Assembly: GCF_002854065.1 (NCBI RefSeq)
Contig: NZ_CP024147.1
Strand: one strand, 5' to 3'
Origin: Escherichia coli
GTDB lineage: Bacteria; Pseudomonadota; Gammaproteobacteria; Enterobacterales; Enterobacteriaceae
Length of the DNA stretch: 64,000 bases
In this document: piece after piece, positions 22,055 to 56,674 of the stretch
Numbering within the stretch: position 1 is the first letter of the stretch
Layout: every line of letters begins with the position of its first letter
Program-made: the position numbers and the translations under genes
The notes under the pieces: generated by a model
What the model saw: the letters and a program-made list of their open reading frames with translations, nothing else
Databases searched by the model: none
What the model was told of the DNA's origin: nothing

Positions 22055-23068
22055 TTAACCTTTCATAAAATTATATTTAATTGCTGTAAAAAAACCATCG
22101 AGAAATTTTTTCTGGTAAAGCAAGTGTTTATATTCTTCTTTGTACTCATGTTTTTTAACAGCTTTTTTATAAGGTATATTTCTCCATGGTGATATATTAT
22201 AAATATTACGAAAATAATCTGCAGATGCGTAGTTCGCCCAATCATGCCATGGCTTTGTTACACCAGTATAATGTATGAAGACAGTTTCATCATTAATAAA
22301 CCGGGTGTAATATTCACTATTTTTTTCTTCAAATTCTGACTTTATAGTATAAATACAGTTATATTTTCTCGGTAATATTTTAGCATGATGTAGAAACATT
22401 AAGTTTAAAATATCTTGATCCGGATATTTTAATTTTTTGATAATTGACTCATCTGATAATAGTTCAAAGAATTTCTCCGTTAGTCTTTGTTTTAACCATT
22501 CCCGTAAATTAATATACATTACACCAGAGTTAAAATAGCTACCGTTAAAATCCTCATTACCTAAACGCTCAGCGCTTTTACTTTGCATAGCATCTACATC
22601 AATTACCACAGCCCCATATTCATCTTTAAACTCTAATGCTATTAACTCGTTCAATGAACCCTTACAGACGATATCAGCATCAAGATATAATAATGAATCC
22701 AATCGCGCAGAAAAATAGTCAAATGAAAGCAAACGATAATAAATAGATACTGGCCAGATATTTGATTGAGGTAGCGTCTTCAATGGCTCAGAATCAATAT
22801 GATATAATTTAATTACTGTTTGATACTTCGTTGCTAATTGTGATAATAATTCAATATAATCTTTGTCTAAGTAATCAGCGATTATGTGAAAGGTAAATTT
22901 GTTTTGTTTATTATTTTCAAGAATTGAAGCAATTGAAATCGCAGCCCCAACCTGGTAGTTCTCATCAATACCCCATGAGACATTAAACGTTTCCCGTTCA
23001 TCAAGTTTAACGGGGCGCTTGTCCAGTTCAATTATATCTTTAAATTGAGTAAGATGTTTAAAATCCAA
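22055..23068 (-). CDS. GT8 LPS alpha-1,2/1,3-hexosyltransferase; position corresponds to waaJ of R3
   Basis: ORF track 22055..23068 (337 aa); GT8 motifs (YLDADI DxD, HYTGVTKPW). Confidence 0.8.
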   Translation of the reverse strand: MDFKHLTQFKDIIELDKRPVKLDERETFNVSWGIDENYQVGAAISIASILENNKQNKFTFHIIADYLDKDYIELLSQLATKYQTVIKLYHIDSEPLKTLPQSNIWPVSIYYRLLSFDYFSARLDSLLYLDADIVCKGSLNELIALEFKDEYGAVVIDVDAMQSKSAERLGNEDFNGSYFNSGVMYINLREWLKQRLTEKFFELLSDESIIKKLKYPDQDILNLMFLHHAKILPRKYNCIYTIKSEFEEKNSEYYTRFINDETVFIHYTGVTKPWHDWANYASADYFRNIYNISPWRNIPYKKAVKKHEYKEEYKHLLYQKKFLDGFFTAIKYNFMKG

Positions 23069-23092
23069 TTTAATTACCCTTCATCATAATCA

Positions 23093-23800
23093 TTATTTGC
23101 TCTTCAAACCTAGTTTGACTTTTACATCCCTGATTGCTTTTTTAATTTTCTTTTTGAATATAAGATATGTATAGCCAAAGTCTTTCAATTCATTTTTTAT
23201 ATTATAGTGCCGTTCAAGATCAATGCGATCTTTTGCTTTTAAAACTGCGGTTGTTTTTTTACCTGAAAGGTCAATTAGTCTTAAACCTTTTTCGGATACT
23301 ATAAAATTTCCTTTATGAGGATCGCCAGACACCATTCCATGCTGATGCAACTCTTTTATCGATTCTGATAATTGATCCTTCAGTTCTTCAGAAATTTCCA
23401 AATACTCATTTAACCCGATACCTTCAATATACTCAATGAGCATAATATAATAATGCGCGAAATTTAATGTTTTACGTTCAGCAAGCAAAAAATAGTCATT
23501 AATTGATTGAATGCCTTCACCACGTACCCGATCGGTTTGATAAATTAAATTTTCATAATAATCTTTTTTTATGCAAGATTTTAAGAAACGTTCGATCATT
23601 TTATGCTTTGGCGCATAAACTTTAAGTACAAGAGGTCCACGAGCAGTGTCAATAAGAATAACTTTAGTATCATCAATAGAACGAAAAACTTTTAATGTTT
23701 TAACCCTGCAAGTTAAAAAATCATTCAGAACTTGCTCATAAAAGGGATCATTATCTTTTATGAAAACTTTCAACCCATTTATCGTTTTATTATATATCAT
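23093..23800 (-). CDS. waaY: LPS core heptose II kinase
   Basis: ORF track 23093..23800 (235 aa); small kinase-like protein between two GT8 genes, as for WaaY. Confidence 0.85.
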   Translation of the reverse strand: MIYNKTINGLKVFIKDNDPFYEQVLNDFLTCRVKTLKVFRSIDDTKVILIDTARGPLVLKVYAPKHKMIERFLKSCIKKDYYENLIYQTDRVRGEGIQSINDYFLLAERKTLNFAHYYIMLIEYIEGIGLNEYLEISEELKDQLSESIKELHQHGMVSGDPHKGNFIVSEKGLRLIDLSGKKTTAVLKAKDRIDLERHYNIKNELKDFGYTYLIFKKKIKKAIRDVKVKLGLKSK

Positions 23801-23825
23801 ATTGAATTATTTTAACCTTAAATCT

Positions 23826-24833
23826 TTAAAAGCATTTTTCTTTATAATACTTTAAATAATTAAAAATGCCCGCCATATAATGCTTTTGTTTAAATTTATG
23901 TTTTGCACAATACCGATACTGATTGCTATTTACAGGTTTAAGTAAATCTTCTTTACACCACGGAGAAGATGCTTTGGCGATCAAAAAACTACGTGACACC
24001 GGATAGTCAGCCCATTCATGCCAGGGTTTTGTAGGTCCCACATAGTGTATAAACACAGTGTCATCATTGACTGGATTATCAACTTTGTCTTTTAATTCAT
24101 AGTTAATACTATATCGGGTATTATATTTCCCAGAAATAAACTTCACTTTACCATTCAATAATACATTCAGTACATCTTGATCAAGGTGGGTGATTTTACT
24201 TACCCAATCTGGATCACGCAACATTTCAATAGCTTTTGACGAAATGTTATTAAGATTCCACTCATCAATATTTATCAGTAAAAAACCAGCATTGAAATAT
24301 CCAGAAGCTAATTGTGGTGTAGTTAATACCGAGGCTCGATTCTGCCACCATTCAACATCTCTTTCAGCTACAACTGCGGCAATTTCATTAGTAGAGAATT
24401 GATAATCTAAGAGTTCTTTAATACTACCCTTGCAAGCAATATCTGCATCAAGATATAGTATTTTTTCATGTTTATTATAGAAATAGTCTGCAATTATAAA
24501 TCGAAAATATGTAGCGTAAGTCCAGTTTTTCGTGCTTGGTAATGACTTCAGCTTATCACAATTGATAACATAAATATTAATTCTTGAATTATATTGTTTT
24601 GCTAAATCGGAAAAATATAACTTGTCTTTATCACTGATATAATCTGTGAAAACATGAAATTCACAAGAGATTTCTCTATTGTTTAATAGAATAGATGCGA
24701 TGGCTACACCACATCCAAAAAGAAAATTTCTGTCAATACCAAATGCTATATCAAGAGTATTTTTAGATCTTATATTTTGATAATGAAAATTATACTCAAA
24801 AAGGATGATGTCACTATCATTGAGTTGAGACAT
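23826..24833 (-). CDS. GT8 LPS alpha-1,3-hexosyltransferase; position corresponds to waaI of R3
   Basis: ORF track 23826..24833 (335 aa); GT8 motifs (YLDADI, HYVGPTKPW). Confidence 0.8.
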   Translation of the reverse strand: MSQLNDSDIILFEYNFHYQNIRSKNTLDIAFGIDRNFLFGCGVAIASILLNNREISCEFHVFTDYISDKDKLYFSDLAKQYNSRINIYVINCDKLKSLPSTKNWTYATYFRFIIADYFYNKHEKILYLDADIACKGSIKELLDYQFSTNEIAAVVAERDVEWWQNRASVLTTPQLASGYFNAGFLLINIDEWNLNNISSKAIEMLRDPDWVSKITHLDQDVLNVLLNGKVKFISGKYNTRYSINYELKDKVDNPVNDDTVFIHYVGPTKPWHEWADYPVSRSFLIAKASSPWCKEDLLKPVNSNQYRYCAKHKFKQKHYMAGIFNYLKYYKEKCF

Positions 24834-24875
24834 ATTTATTCTGTATCCAAAATTTTGGCAAAAATAAGTTACGGG

Positions 24876-25673
24876 TTACAACGATTTTCGAATCGTTCTT
24901 TCCCTGATTTTTGTGGCTTTTGCTTCTGCTTGCGACAGCAGTCCTTGTTCCTGCTTGAGAATGTCTTTAAGCGGGGCGGCAAAATACACTTTCATAAACC
25001 GCCAGATATCCCGCTGAGTCAGGCCGATATTCATCGAAGAAAAATAAAGCCCTATAAGATCTTTATCGCGCCAACGACGTGGAACGCGCGTGCGAAGCTG
25101 CGCCCGGTGCAGGTCAATTACCGAAATTTTTAACTCCTCTTCCTTACCGGAAAAAGGCAAGTGCAACAGGAAATGACAGATATAACAGTCACGGTGGTTA
25201 ATGCCCGCAGCATGCATATCGCGCACCATCGTCGCGACACGCTTAATAAGCATACGCTTTACGCGAACATCTGGAGGGTTAGTCGCCCAGTCAGCACAGT
25301 AATCTTCCAGACTTATGGTTGGTGTCAGATCTTCGGTAATAATAAATGAAGTTCTGGTCAGCGGATTCATGCCTTTTTCGCCAAATGCCACCCCATACAT
25401 AGTATCAACGCCGACATCCCGCAGTCGATGAATCGCATTCCATTCGCGGTCTGCGCCTAATACTGGCATCCGCAATGAGAGTAAATTTTTGATTATCTCT
25501 TTCAGGGTCGTGCCGCGATGCCATTTGAGAAAATAGCTTTTGCCCGCCATTTCAAAGCGCAGAGTACGGCGAGTTTCCAGTTCACGAAATACCTCACCCT
25601 GCAAGGTTTTAACTTCCTCAAAAGGATCTTTACCGCGCCATAACGTGGCAAACGGCTCTTTAAGTTCAACCAT
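24876..25673 (-). CDS. waaP: LPS core heptose I kinase
   Basis: ORF track 24876..25682; start trimmed to [21 protein letters not shown] (recall of WaaP); overlaps waaG by 8 nt. Confidence 0.93.
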
Positions 25674-26790
25674 CCAGACCACCCGTTATGATATCCGCCG
25701 CTTTCTCTGGCAGACTGTATAAATCTTGTGTATCAGCATAATGTCGCGCATTTTCCGCCCAGGCCTGGCGCAATGAAGATTGCGTTAACGCTTTGCGTAA
25801 AATCTCATTCAATGTTTCCTGGCGGAATGGCTCAACAATAGCCTCGCCGCAATTGGCCTCGACAATATAATGCGCATAGCCACAAACGGCTGTTGTTAGT
25901 ACCGGTAATCCTGCAGTAATCGCTTCCAGCAGCACAATTCCCGCCGCTTCCTGGTAGGCAGGATGCAGTAATAAATCCGCCGCCGCCATTAATTCCGAGA
26001 CATCGTTGCGCCCCGAGAAGAAGTGAACATTACTGCGCACGCCGCGTTTTTCTGCCAGCGCCTCAAATTTTCGCGGTTTATCCTGCCCAACAACATATAG
26101 CAATGTGTTGTGGCGCAGCGAATCCGGTAACGAAGCAAGTGCTTCAATGGAACGATCGACACCTTTACGCGTGAAGTCTGAACCGACCTGCAACAATAAA
26201 TATTGTTGTTCGGTTATTCCATTCTTCTTACGGAAGATTTCACGGCTATTAGCTGGCTGCTGGCTATATTTACGATCAGGATAAATCCCCGGTGGCAGAA
26301 TATGAAAACGCTCCGCTTCAGTCTGATAATGTTTCTGGAAATCGGCGATTTGCTTATCTGTCAGCATCAGCAGCTGTGTCGGCTTGCCCTGTTCGAAGGT
26401 TGCCCGCTCAAAGGCGGCATAATGGCGATAACGTGACGTCAGGCGATAGAAAAAGCCTTTTTCCTGCGCTACTTTCTCGGCATAACAAACATCAGCGGCA
26501 TAATAAACGTCCAGCCCCGGCATTTTATTGAATCCAACGACTTTATCGACGGGATGTTCGCGTAAATGTTTTTGCACCCAGGCAAAATACTCCGCATTGC
26601 GCCCGTGATTGGTATGCGATTTAACCGGCACTTTGATCAGTTCAAATACATCAGGGCATTCGCCTTCCCACGACTGGGTATAAACCCGAACATGATGACC
26701 TCGGGCGGCGACTGTCTGAGCAATACGCATAAAATCGCGCTGCAAACCGCCAAAGGGAAAATATTTATATAAACAAAAAGCAACGATCAT
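25666..26790 (-). CDS. waaG: LPS glucosyltransferase I (GT4)
   Basis: ORF track 25666..26790 (374 aa); [25 protein letters not shown]-terminus as recalled. Confidence 0.93.
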
Positions 26791-27845
26791 AACGACGTAC
26801 CTGTCGTGGAGGAGGGCAGTAATTTATCGACAGCAGCAATGATATCTGCCGCCGGAATAACCGAAAGATACATCTCATTTCGGTCACGCTGATCGCGCGT
26901 TGGCATTTCCCGGTAATCTCCCGCCCAGAATTGAATCATGTTATTTGACCAGGGACGCCAGAAAATATGGTCTGTCGCACCAAACAGCGATATCAGCGGC
27001 GTATTAACTGCAGCGGCAATATGCGCCGGTGCGGAATCAACGCCAATAAACAGCTGCGCATGATCGATTAACGCACCAAGTTCCGGGAAGGTCACCTTTC
27101 CAGCCAGCGCCGTTACTGGTGGCGTCTGGCATCCCTGCGCAATTTCATTGACGCAGGCCAGATCGTCTTTATCTGGGCCGGACGTCAGAACGACTTCATA
27201 ACCACGAGCATGTAAGGCATCAATCACAGCGGAAAACTTGGCGTTGTCCCAGCATTTGAAGATTTGCCGCGCCGTAGGTTGGATAACCACATAATTTTGT
27301 CCAACACCAGCGTGATCAAGTTCGCGACGCATACGTTTCCAGCTTGCAGGCGGGTAACTCATGGTTGTCTGCTTCACCAACGAATCAAGTCCCAATGGTG
27401 TCAGCACGGATAAGTTACTTTCCACCACATTTCCACCCTGCAACGGCACCAAATGGGTGAAACTTTTACGCCAAAAAGCAGACTGCCGATGATGATAATC
27501 CTGGGAAATTTTCACACGGGCATTTAATAAGCGAACCAGTATAGCAACCATCCATTGATCGGTAAGATTGACGATAAGGTCATACTTATTGGCACGTAAT
27601 ACCTTGATGAGATGAAAAAAGTTGGCAATTTTTTCTGAGGCTTTTGCTTTTTTATTTTTTATGCCGTAGAGCGCGTTAATCTCTGGATTTTCAGACAGGA
27701 TCGGGATGGTGTCCTGATAAAGCAGCACATCGATTTTTGCGTCAGGGTAATTTTTTTTCAGCGAACTAATGACGGGAGTAGTTAATAACATATCCCCATG
27801 AAAACGCATCTTAATGAGCAAAATTCTTCGAAATGGCTTATCCAC
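26787..27845 (-). CDS. waaQ: LPS heptosyltransferase III
   Basis: ORF track 26787..27845 (352 aa); GT9 N-terminal motif RILLIKMRFHGDMLLTTP; first gene of the waaQ operon. Confidence 0.92.
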   Translation of the reverse strand: MDKPFRRILLIKMRFHGDMLLTTPVISSLKKNYPDAKIDVLLYQDTIPILSENPEINALYGIKNKKAKASEKIANFFHLIKVLRANKYDLIVNLTDQWMVAILVRLLNARVKISQDYHHRQSAFWRKSFTHLVPLQGGNVVESNLSVLTPLGLDSLVKQTTMSYPPASWKRMRRELDHAGVGQNYVVIQPTARQIFKCWDNAKFSAVIDALHARGYEVVLTSGPDKDDLACVNEIAQGCQTPPVTALAGKVTFPELGALIDHAQLFIGVDSAPAHIAAAVNTPLISLFGATDHIFWRPWSNNMIQFWAGDYREMPTRDQRDRNEMYLSVIPAADIIAAVDKLLPSSTTGTSL

Positions 27846-27894
27846 AAGTAACTCTTTTTGTTGAGATTATCCGATTAAGGTGAAGCAGAAAAAG

Positions 27895-27906
27895 CACGCT
27901 ACCGCC
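27895..27906 (-). promoter_or_regulatory. ops element (RfaH recruitment site) within the JUMPstart sequence of the waaQ leader
   Basis: Reverse complement of 27894..27906 is GGCGGTAGCGTGC, matching the ops consensus GGCGGTAGCGTG; about 50 bp upstream of the waaQ start. Confidence 0.75.
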
Positions 27907-28257
27907 CCAGGCTCAACAGCTACCTGAATACTGATACCGCACTGATATTGACGCGCTAGTGTATCACTTCTTTCGCGGCAATCCGACCCGAATGATTTTT
28001 AAGCACACTGTTGATTTTCAATAAAGAAATCAATCAAATATAATCATTAGCAACCATATTCTTTCACTGTTGCTCTGCGATTTCTTCCTGCACGTACAGC
28101 AGAAATCAATGAATCGCATAAAAATACAAAAAAAGTATAGATGTTCAGCAAGAATTGGCGGGTAAATTGCTATTTAAGTCAAAAACGGGAAAAGTAATGG
28201 TAAAGCCACAGCTAAATACATAGAATCCCCAGCACATCCATAAGTCAGCTATTTACT

Positions 28258-30022
<1,765 letters not shown>

Positions 30023-55933: not shown

Positions 55934-56028
55934 ATCGAGGCGCGGAAGATCGTCGTCTCCGGTGAGGCGGCTGGACTTCAAATCCAGTTGGGGCCGCCAG
56001 CGGTCCCGGGCAGGTTCGACTCCTGTGA
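55934..56028 (+). tRNA. selC: tRNA-Sec (selenocysteine, UCA anticodon)
   Basis: 95-nt sequence ggaagatcgtcgtctccggtgaggcggctggacttcaaatccagttggggccgccagcggtcccgggcaggttcgactcctgtgatcttccgcca; long variable arm, anticodon loop cttcaaa. Confidence 0.97.
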
Positions 56029-56674
56029 TCTTCCGCCAAAATGCCTCTTCTGACGTTCTCCAATCCCTTGTAATACTGTCAATCCAGAGATTTTCTACTG
56101 CTCAATATTCAATCGGCTTCAGGAATACCTGATCAAAGGTTTTGTGATGGACGATGAGCGACTGAAGAATCCGCCTGTCGGTTCTTCTGTCCTCGAACGC
56201 ATCCGCGATATTCGCGCCAGCATGCGCCGTGTTTATTTGCAGGTGATTTGCCCCCCTGCTGACTCTCAGCCAACTGTATCGCCATTAAGGTGAAGATGTT
56301 GTTTTACACGCTTCTGCACACCCTTTTTTATACGACTGTTCTATTCCTTTAACAGCTGGCAAAAAAACTGACCTATAAACTTCACCAATAATCAGACTGC
56401 CATTAAGATTAATTTGTTCATTTAATATATCAAATCAACTTGTTTTATTTTTACTATCAAAAATAGCTCATTGCCTTACTATAATTAATATATAAATTCG
56501 GTGATTAATTCTTAACATGCTTTTGCTAATAATCTCAATTGCTGGCCCTATAATATTGCGCTAGCATTGTTTTCTGGTTGTATCAGCGATACTCAAAAAT
56601 TCTTAATACAATACTCATTCGACTGGTACTTATTTGTAACTCAGTTATATTTTGTCGCCCGGTGATTCAGAAGA

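Follow-up and report, generated by a model that had tools for sequence, protein, structure and literature searches.

The stretch of DNA analysed here (64,000 nucleotides, referred to as the window) carries the Escherichia coli waa locus, in which waaQ and waaA are divergent around a 412-bp gap. Seven genes on the minus strand (20904..27845) form the waaQ operon, in the order waaQ, waaG, waaP, a galactosyltransferase gene, waaY and the genes of a second GT8 enzyme and of a GlcNAc transferase; waaL is located on the strand opposite to the operon. Based on gene order and content, we infer that the core type is R3-like. The distal 5 kb of the operon have a G+C content of 27-39%. The same values are found over 19600..24800, a segment that includes the distal part of the operon and waaL, vs about 50% for its neighbours, and such low G+C is typical of horizontally acquired, H-NS-silenced DNA.

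The features of the region are listed in Table 1. The identification of waaQ relies on the list of open reading frames, on the PGAP annotation (rfaQ) of strain CUWW06 and on the NCBIfam model NF007742 (RfaQ, 713 bits). The whole waaQ-waaA region is 100% identical to that of E. coli CUWW06, where PGAP places rfaQ and waaA at the flanks. The GTG at 27845 is also the start chosen by PGAP, and the RfaQ model was matched at positions 1-351 of 352. In MG1655 the start of waaQ is annotated at an internal ATG, equivalent to 27809, which gives a protein of 344 aa, vs 352 aa from the upstream GTG. Within the 12 extra codons (27809..27845, minus), the alleles differ mostly by synonymous or conservative changes, and this, together with the backing of the GTG by PGAP and NCBIfam, indicates that the K-12 start is probably annotated too short.

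Table 1. Features of the waaQ-waaA region, with positions given in the window.
Feature	Position	Strand	Remarks
waaQ (rfaQ) CDS	26787..27845	minus	heptosyltransferase III, GTG start; first gene of a seven-gene core-oligosaccharide operon
Shine-Dalgarno-like AAGAG, weak	27852..27856	minus	6 nt before the waaQ GTG; sequence reading
RirA equivalent	27880..27951	minus	72 nt here, 73 nt in MG1655; 5' end is the predicted waaQ transcription start
T5 run (GTGC-TTTTT)	27889..27893	minus	directly after ops; characteristic of waaQ-type leaders
ops element GGCGGTAGCGTG	27895..27906	minus	non-template strand of waaQ transcription; RfaH loading and pause site
JUMPstart 39-mer CAGTATTCAGGTAGCTGTTGAGCCTGGGGCGGTAGCGTG	27895..27933	minus	Rfam RF01707, 55.2 bits, full length
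JUMPstart stem-loop	27908..27926	minus	5-bp stem CAGGU/GCCUG, 9-nt loop; Rfam structure line
Extended -10 TGaTACACT	27958..27966	minus	waaQ operon promoter; start is the 7th base after it (27951)
Conserved block TCATTCGGGTCGGATTGC	27978..27995	minus	about -28 to -45 of the waaQ promoter; no sigma-70 -35 consensus
AT-rich variable spacer	27996..28169	none	window and K-12 alleles 57-65% identical
Conserved island TCAATGAATCGCATAAAAATACAAAAAAA	28106..28134		within the variable spacer
waaA activator-like site	28181..28195	plus	overlaps predicted MarA boxes, abuts conserved CAAAAGTAATGG
waaA proximal promoter	28221..28234	plus	-10 TAGAAT at 28221..28226, start 28234, 5' UTR of 24 nt
waaA (kdtA) CDS	28258..29535	plus	Kdo transferase; NCBIfam NF004385, 902 bits; ORF list; PGAP

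The ops core lies within a complete JUMPstart element

Direct reading of the plus strand at 27894..27906 gives gcacgctaccgcc, that is, GGCGGTAGCGTGC on the minus strand, the same letters that had been pointed out as an ops sequence in a preliminary description of this DNA. The 12-nt consensus GGCGGTAGnnTG is exactly matched on the sense (non-template) strand of waaQ, and a search of the 64-kb window with the consensus GGCGGTAGNNTG returned a single match, at 27906..27895 on the minus strand, where a mean of 0.03 matches per window is expected by chance and 3 of 100 dinucleotide shuffles contained any match. The gap between the last ops base (27895) and the waaQ GTG (27845) measures 49 nt, close to the 50 bp initially estimated. 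All the ops bases for which a requirement has been established experimentally (PMC5995543) are found here: the C3:G8 pair, G4, G5, T6, A7, G8 and T11-G12.

The similarity had been described only for the 12-bp core, leaving in doubt whether an alignment to JUMPstart would continue beyond it. The Rfam model RF01707 aligned to 27933..27895 of the minus strand over its full length (positions 1-38 of 38), with a score of 55.2 bits, the gathering threshold being 35 bits, and E-values of 8.9e-12 when the region was searched and 6.4e-10 when the search covered the whole window. The ops core is therefore part of a complete 39-nt JUMPstart, and the doubt can be set aside. Among K-12 leaders, the same model gives 60.0 bits for rfbB and 57.3 for wza, both of them classical targets of RfaH, and 55.2 for waaQ. 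The element is placed in the transcribed leader of an LPS-core operon, downstream of the start site derived from the literature and the K-12 annotation. This JUMPstart/ops signal is well known from the leader of E. coli waaQ as the site at which the anti-termination factor RfaH boards RNA polymerase; it has already been described and is not novel.

Other candidates in the region were discarded. Matches to the Rfam families snoR03, UPD-PKc, SNORD11 and CLRN1-AS1 were far under threshold (E > 1) and are attributed to chance. A second, upstream ops-like repeat, GTGCGGTATCAG, with 7/12 matches, has no G8 and is not kept in K-12. Repeats in the waaQ-waaA gap were limited to short two-copy matches, none of them interpretable. 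Only two Rfam matches reached the gathering threshold in the whole window, JUMPstart and a tRNA-Sec gene (selC, 55944..56034, plus strand, 83.8 bits). selC is a classic insertion site of pathogenicity islands. The open reading frames just downstream of it encode 394 and 307 aa, the sizes of the genes found there in K-12, so that no pathogenicity island is apparent at selC.

Transcription start and layout of the waaQ leader

An independent published table of start sites (PMC12052159 Table S2) places the rfaQ start at -16 from the centre of the 15-mer GAAAGAAATGATACA, and this falls on the base that constitutes the 5' end of the small RNA RirA, equivalent to position 27951 of the window. Since the published start and the RirA 5' end coincide in K-12, RirA and the waaQ mRNA would share a primary start here and the leader would have a length of 106 nt, with JUMPstart at +19..+57 and ops at +46..+57. 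The RirA 5' end is preceded, at a distance of 6 nt, by the extended -10 TGaTACACT. Twelve waaQ leaders were aligned, namely those of the window, of K-12 and of ten of the loci found in the cross-species scan described below. Every one of them has the TG of the extended -10, followed in 11 by a TACACT-like hexamer (TACACT, TACAAT or TATAAT), Pectobacterium being the exception, and the spacing between the -10 and JUMPstart is preserved. The sequence AAGAG or GAG followed by GTG is kept in 11 of the 12 species. Further upstream, the block TCATTCGGGTCGGATTGC is shared by both E. coli alleles, and its TCGG core near -35 is kept in most genera. With respect to the T-run, at least 5 T within the 9 nt after ops were present in 10 of 13 distinct waaQ-linked leaders vs 14 of 63 other JUMPstarts.

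A scan for sigma-70 -35/-10 sites gave two consensus-like sites (28015..28044, plus, and 28021..27992, minus; 1.5 expected). Neither is taken as a promoter, given that both fall in the AT-rich spacer that varies between alleles and that the scan missed the real extended -10. An open reading frame of 9 codons that begins with GTG at +10 of the leader was also rejected, since it lacks a Shine-Dalgarno sequence and its frame is shifted in Citrobacter R56.

The preliminary description had also mentioned, as reported knowledge, that the waaQ 5' UTR gives rise to RirA, a small RNA that interacts with RfaH. This agrees with the RefSeq annotation of MG1655, where the ncRNA gene rirA (b4760) is located between waaQ and waaA (3808166..3808238, minus), and with the presence of an equivalent at 27951..27880 of the window, identical in 67 of 73 positions of the alignment (92%); the differences are 5 substitutions and a T-run shorter by one base. 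RirA is absent from Rfam as a family. According to three reviews by the laboratory that discovered it (PMC5736990, PMC6358824, PMC8745692), it is a 73-nt RNA that has its 5' end and start site in common with the messenger of waaQ and includes JUMPstart and ops; it binds RfaH, together with RNA polymerase, in a manner dependent on ops in the RNA, and its over-expression mimics deletion of rfaH. The evidence compiled in these reviews is that of a single group, obtained by over-expressing RirA and by binding assays in vitro. The physiological role of RirA is less secure than that of ops and RfaH.

Conservation of the promoter-leader block in a divergent cassette

A segment of 87 nt, which begins with the extended -10 and runs to the 3' end of RirA, was recovered from 5424 of 5426 complete E. 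coli genomes, always with at least 90% identity. It is devoid of annotation in 10 of the 10 records listed; rirA is annotated in MG1655. The allele of the window is that of the E. coli majority (at least 99% identity, about 4400 genomes) and K-12 has a minority allele (about 950). When the identity between both alleles was measured in 60-nt bins, values of 98-100% were obtained on the waaA side, down to about 28190, followed by 57-65% over 28010..28189, 88-93% over the promoter and JUMPstart (27890..28009), 70% from ops to the waaQ start codon and 50-87% within waaQ. At the protein level, WaaA of the window is 99.7% identical to K-12 WaaA; WaaQ shares 80% identity with that of Citrobacter sp. 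R56 and only 72.8% with that of K-12. Because WaaQ diverges from its K-12 counterpart while WaaA is nearly identical and the promoter-leader retains 88-93% identity, the promoter-JUMPstart-ops block is, as judged by sequence comparison, a conserved island within an exchanged, divergent waa cassette, which argues for strong selection on this block. Since the central spacer differs from that of K-12, any sites of upstream regulation located in K-12 may not hold for this allele.

A separate observation concerns the allelic breakpoint, which lies within 27996..28190, the waaA side being K-12-like and the spacer and waaQ divergent; this looks like an exchange of the waaQ operon cassette with its junction in the intergenic spacer.

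A pattern scan across species, with one genome per species, gave at least 120 loci, about half of them chance matches in unrelated phyla, so that the cross-species sample is small. JUMPstart was found directly upstream of a waaQ homologue in at least 12 loci, and among the matches listed these correspond to Escherichia albertii, another E. coli, three Citrobacter, Kluyvera, Kosakonia, Pluralibacter, Pseudescherichia, Enterobacter, Cedecea and Pectobacterium.

The waaA side of the gap and the variable spacer

The supplement of the Reg-Seq study (PMC7567609) cites a start of waaA-coaD at 3808516 (forward), experimentally validated according to RegulonDB, and reports an activator-like site at -53..-39 of this promoter. 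Through a block that is 100% identical in both genomes, the start maps to 28234, preceded by the -10 TAGAAT, and the activator-like site to 28181..28195. Positions from about -45 to -5 with respect to the waaA start (CAAAAGTAATGG...TAAATACATAGAATCCCCAGCACAT) are conserved in eight genera. Binding of MarA to a kdtA (waaA) regulatory fragment has been reported in vitro, with no measured effect, and that fragment gave about 20-fold more lacZ expression than the empty vector (PMC12052159). The preliminary description had anticipated that the waaA promoter would share the gap with the waaQ leader, as is the case, and had called the region densely regulatory; the waaA promoter, the activator-like site, the binding of MarA and an additional minus-strand start make this a fair account. 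The latter start, at about 28190 in the table of PMC12052159, is 44 bp from the waaA start and directed towards waaQ. It could be a second, distal promoter of waaQ or a divergent or antisense start, and only a weak TACCAT is found as a -10 for it. Readings of the block upstream of waaA as sigma-32 or sigma-E promoters were rejected, the matches to consensus being poor by eye.

The island TCAATGAATCGCATAAAAATACAAAAAAA, embedded in the variable spacer, is common to K-12, E. albertii and Citrobacter R56, partly recognisable in Pseudescherichia and Kosakonia, and loosely resembles a MarA/Rob/SoxS box. In E. coli SW07163 the waaQ-waaA spacer holds an IS1 (locus L004, 2246..2943), which lies upstream of the waaQ start site by more than 120 bp and of the waaA ATG by about 175 bp and apparently leaves both core promoters intact.

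Probable recruitment of RfaH at the waaQ leader

Taken together, it is highly probable that the waaQ and waaA operons are divergently controlled from the 412-bp gap, with RfaH boarding at the ops element of waaQ; nothing in the sequence contradicts this reading. RNA polymerase has been shown to pause on ops at C9 and U11, RfaH reads bases 3-8 of the non-template strand with the C3:G8 pair formed, and the pause is driven by T11-G12 (PMC5995543). According to cryo-EM data, the paused complex is pre-translocated and reinforced by RfaH (bioRxiv 10.1101/2023.06.26.546588). Pausing at U11 and binding of RfaH at that point are documented in the literature both for ops in general and, in other strains, for the rfaQ operon. 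The waaQ operon is bound by H-NS both in CFT073 (PMC9765446) and in K-12 (bioRxiv 10.1101/2024.06.20.599902), and, being long, with an AT-rich distal half and H-NS-bound, it fits the usual profile of an RfaH client. The weak Shine-Dalgarno sequence and the GTG start likewise fit the ribosome recruitment reported for RfaH. Start sites, pausing, RfaH binding and RirA effects described in the literature are assumed to apply unchanged to the strain of the window.

Under this reading, transcription of waaQ would start at 27951 from the extended -10 TGaTACACT and the polymerase would pause on ops at U11 (27896), where the single-stranded non-template DNA would fold into a small hairpin to be recognised by RfaH. 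RfaH would then stay on the polymerase, suppressing pausing and Rho- or H-NS-dependent termination, and would help bring the ribosome to the GTG start of waaQ with its weak Shine-Dalgarno sequence, the expected outcome being full expression of a long operon with a distal half of 27-39% G+C. RirA would correspond to the first ~72 nt of the leader, with the reported capacity to bind RfaH and, when over-produced, to mimic its loss. The last ~80 bp of the gap would be occupied by the waaA promoter (-10 TAGAAT, start 28234) and the activator-like site upstream of it. The element decides whether the LPS core is completed, and RfaH, as a shared factor, ties it to O-antigen, capsule, haemolysin and conjugation genes, so that envelope integrity and virulence are at stake. 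RfaH and ops at waaQ are textbook knowledge for E. coli and finding them here brings no new biology; the value of the analysis resides in the base-level map of the region for this allele and in the conserved island within the divergent waa cassette. The point that it sharpens is the role of the JUMPstart hairpin.

The JUMPstart hairpin and its position relative to the ops pause

The stem-loop in JUMPstart was noted by Weinberg et al. 2010 (PMC2864571) without an assigned function. Zero non-canonical pairs were flagged in its CAGGU/GCCUG stem. Among 64 distinct JUMPstarts, the second pair of the stem is U-A in 44, A-U in 10, G-U in 5 and G-C in 2, and it is formed in 61 of the 64 vs 37.4 expected if both sides were independent; the predicted hairpin is thus supported by covariation. 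The A-U pair is used by JUMPstarts of the waaQ class and the U-A pair by those of rfb and wza. In 61 of 64 elements one base, a G, separates the hairpin from ops, which places the 3' base of the hairpin 12 nt from U11 of ops; in the remaining 3 the distance is 11 nt.

This distance can be compared with that of the his-operon leader, where the distance from the end of the pause hairpin to the pause 3' end is 11 nt (bioRxiv 10.1101/2023.06.26.546588); the spacing of the JUMPstart hairpin is essentially that of the his pause. However, the ops pause has been described as pre-translocated or backtracked and as biochemically distinct from the hairpin-stabilised (class I) pause of his. The structural work on ops was done with scaffolds that did not include the JUMPstart hairpin (bioRxiv 10.1101/2023.06.26.546588), and our search of the literature found no experiment linking this hairpin to pausing. 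From its position, the hairpin may tune the ops pause or limit backtracking. If so, it would sit in the RNA exit channel, or backtracking would be blocked, just when RfaH must load.

In the waaQ leaders a longer stem is also predicted. RNAalifold, run on the twelve aligned leaders, pairs the ops RNA with leader positions at about +9..+24. A further pairing, between the A-rich 5' end of the leader and the U-run after ops, is predicted in most species. In this extended stem 94.1% of cells are paired, vs 31-51% when the partners are slid, three pairs have double changes, and the observed values are equalled or exceeded by 0 to 3 of 500 shuffles, figures obtained with an invariant ops side, a small and phylogenetically related sample, and a structure that had itself been predicted from these sequences. 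For the window allele, the predicted RirA-like fold does not surpass shuffled sequence in stability (z = -0.3 to -0.7). The broader proposal that the upstream half of JUMPstart is a nascent-RNA hairpin placed for the ops pause, and that in waaQ leaders the longer stem defines a compact RirA, is put forward tentatively and seems to us rather unlikely to hold in full.

The waaQ leader can also be set against other known leaders. The locus, gene order, JUMPstart 39-mer, extended -10 and position of the start site are identical in K-12 MG1655, but upstream of the promoter the spacers of K-12 and of the window essentially cannot be aligned. K-12 rfbB (O-antigen) and wza (colanic acid) have in common with the window the GGCGGTAGCGTG ops, the hairpin geometry, the single-G spacer and the Rfam family. 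They differ in the second stem pair, U-A in both and A-U in waaQ of the window, a compensatory change, in having no U-run after ops, and in the distance from ops to the start codon (75 nt in rfbB and 178 nt in wza vs 49 nt here). A more distant parallel is the EAR/epsC element of Bacillales, mentioned beside JUMPstart in PMC2864571, which is likewise structured and conserved, lies in the 5' UTR of operons for polysaccharides and is associated with processive antitermination. Its sequence and structure are, however, unrelated, its hosts are Gram-positive, and its presumed mode of action is as RNA on the elongation complex, in contrast to ops, which RfaH reads as DNA.

Alternative roles of the leader

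The features of the leader RNA raise the question of whether the main product of the element could be RNA, with RirA acting as a decoy that titrates RfaH and caps expression of LPS-core and O-antigen genes, in which case loading on DNA would be half of the story. The annotation of rirA in MG1655, the reported ops-dependent binding of RfaH and rfaH-null-like phenotype upon over-expression, the long stem that in all twelve waaQ leaders pairs the 5' end with the ops RNA (94.1% of cells) and the enrichment of U-runs after ops in these leaders are consistent with such a role. However, the data in the reviews are those of over-expression and in-vitro binding from a single laboratory, and RfaH reads ops as non-template DNA in the paused complex and not as free RNA (PMC5995543). 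In addition, ops is buried in the stem of the shared fold, which is not significantly stable in the window allele, and covariation is mostly one-sided due to the invariant ops side. We consider this role possible, although on balance improbable. The same stem, followed by CUUUUU(U) in most waaQ leaders and shortly afterwards by the 3' end of RirA, might instead be viewed as an attenuator that ends some transcripts just after ops, generating RirA, and is read through by the RfaH-modified polymerase. The scan for terminators in the region gave no matches, the base of the stem is weak (A-U and G-U pairs), and in several species the U-run is itself paired with the A-rich 5' end, unlike a free terminator U-tract. 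Furthermore, the annotated RirA 3' end is 9 nt past the U-run and about 14 nt past the stem, more than would be expected of a canonical intrinsic terminator, and the JUMPstart leaders of rfb and wza have no U-run. With a negative scan and a geometry incompatible with the annotated RirA 3' end, an intrinsic terminator after ops was rejected, and attenuation of this kind appears very unlikely.

That the ops match might have arisen by chance and lack any function would find some basis in the 3 of 100 shuffled windows with one match to the 12-mer. Such an origin is refuted by the conservation data: the element is in a fixed position in 5424 E. coli genomes and kept upstream of waaQ across other enterobacterial genera. 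The full 39-nt JUMPstart match (E = 6e-10), on the correct strand and downstream of a mapped start site, points in the same direction, leaving chance with a practically negligible probability.

As for variation in leader structure among species, the waaQ leader of Pseudescherichia vulneris (locus L047, 3647..3722) is predicted to form a long hairpin that encloses JUMPstart (-33.1 kcal/mol, z = -4.5), a fold much stronger than that of E. coli.
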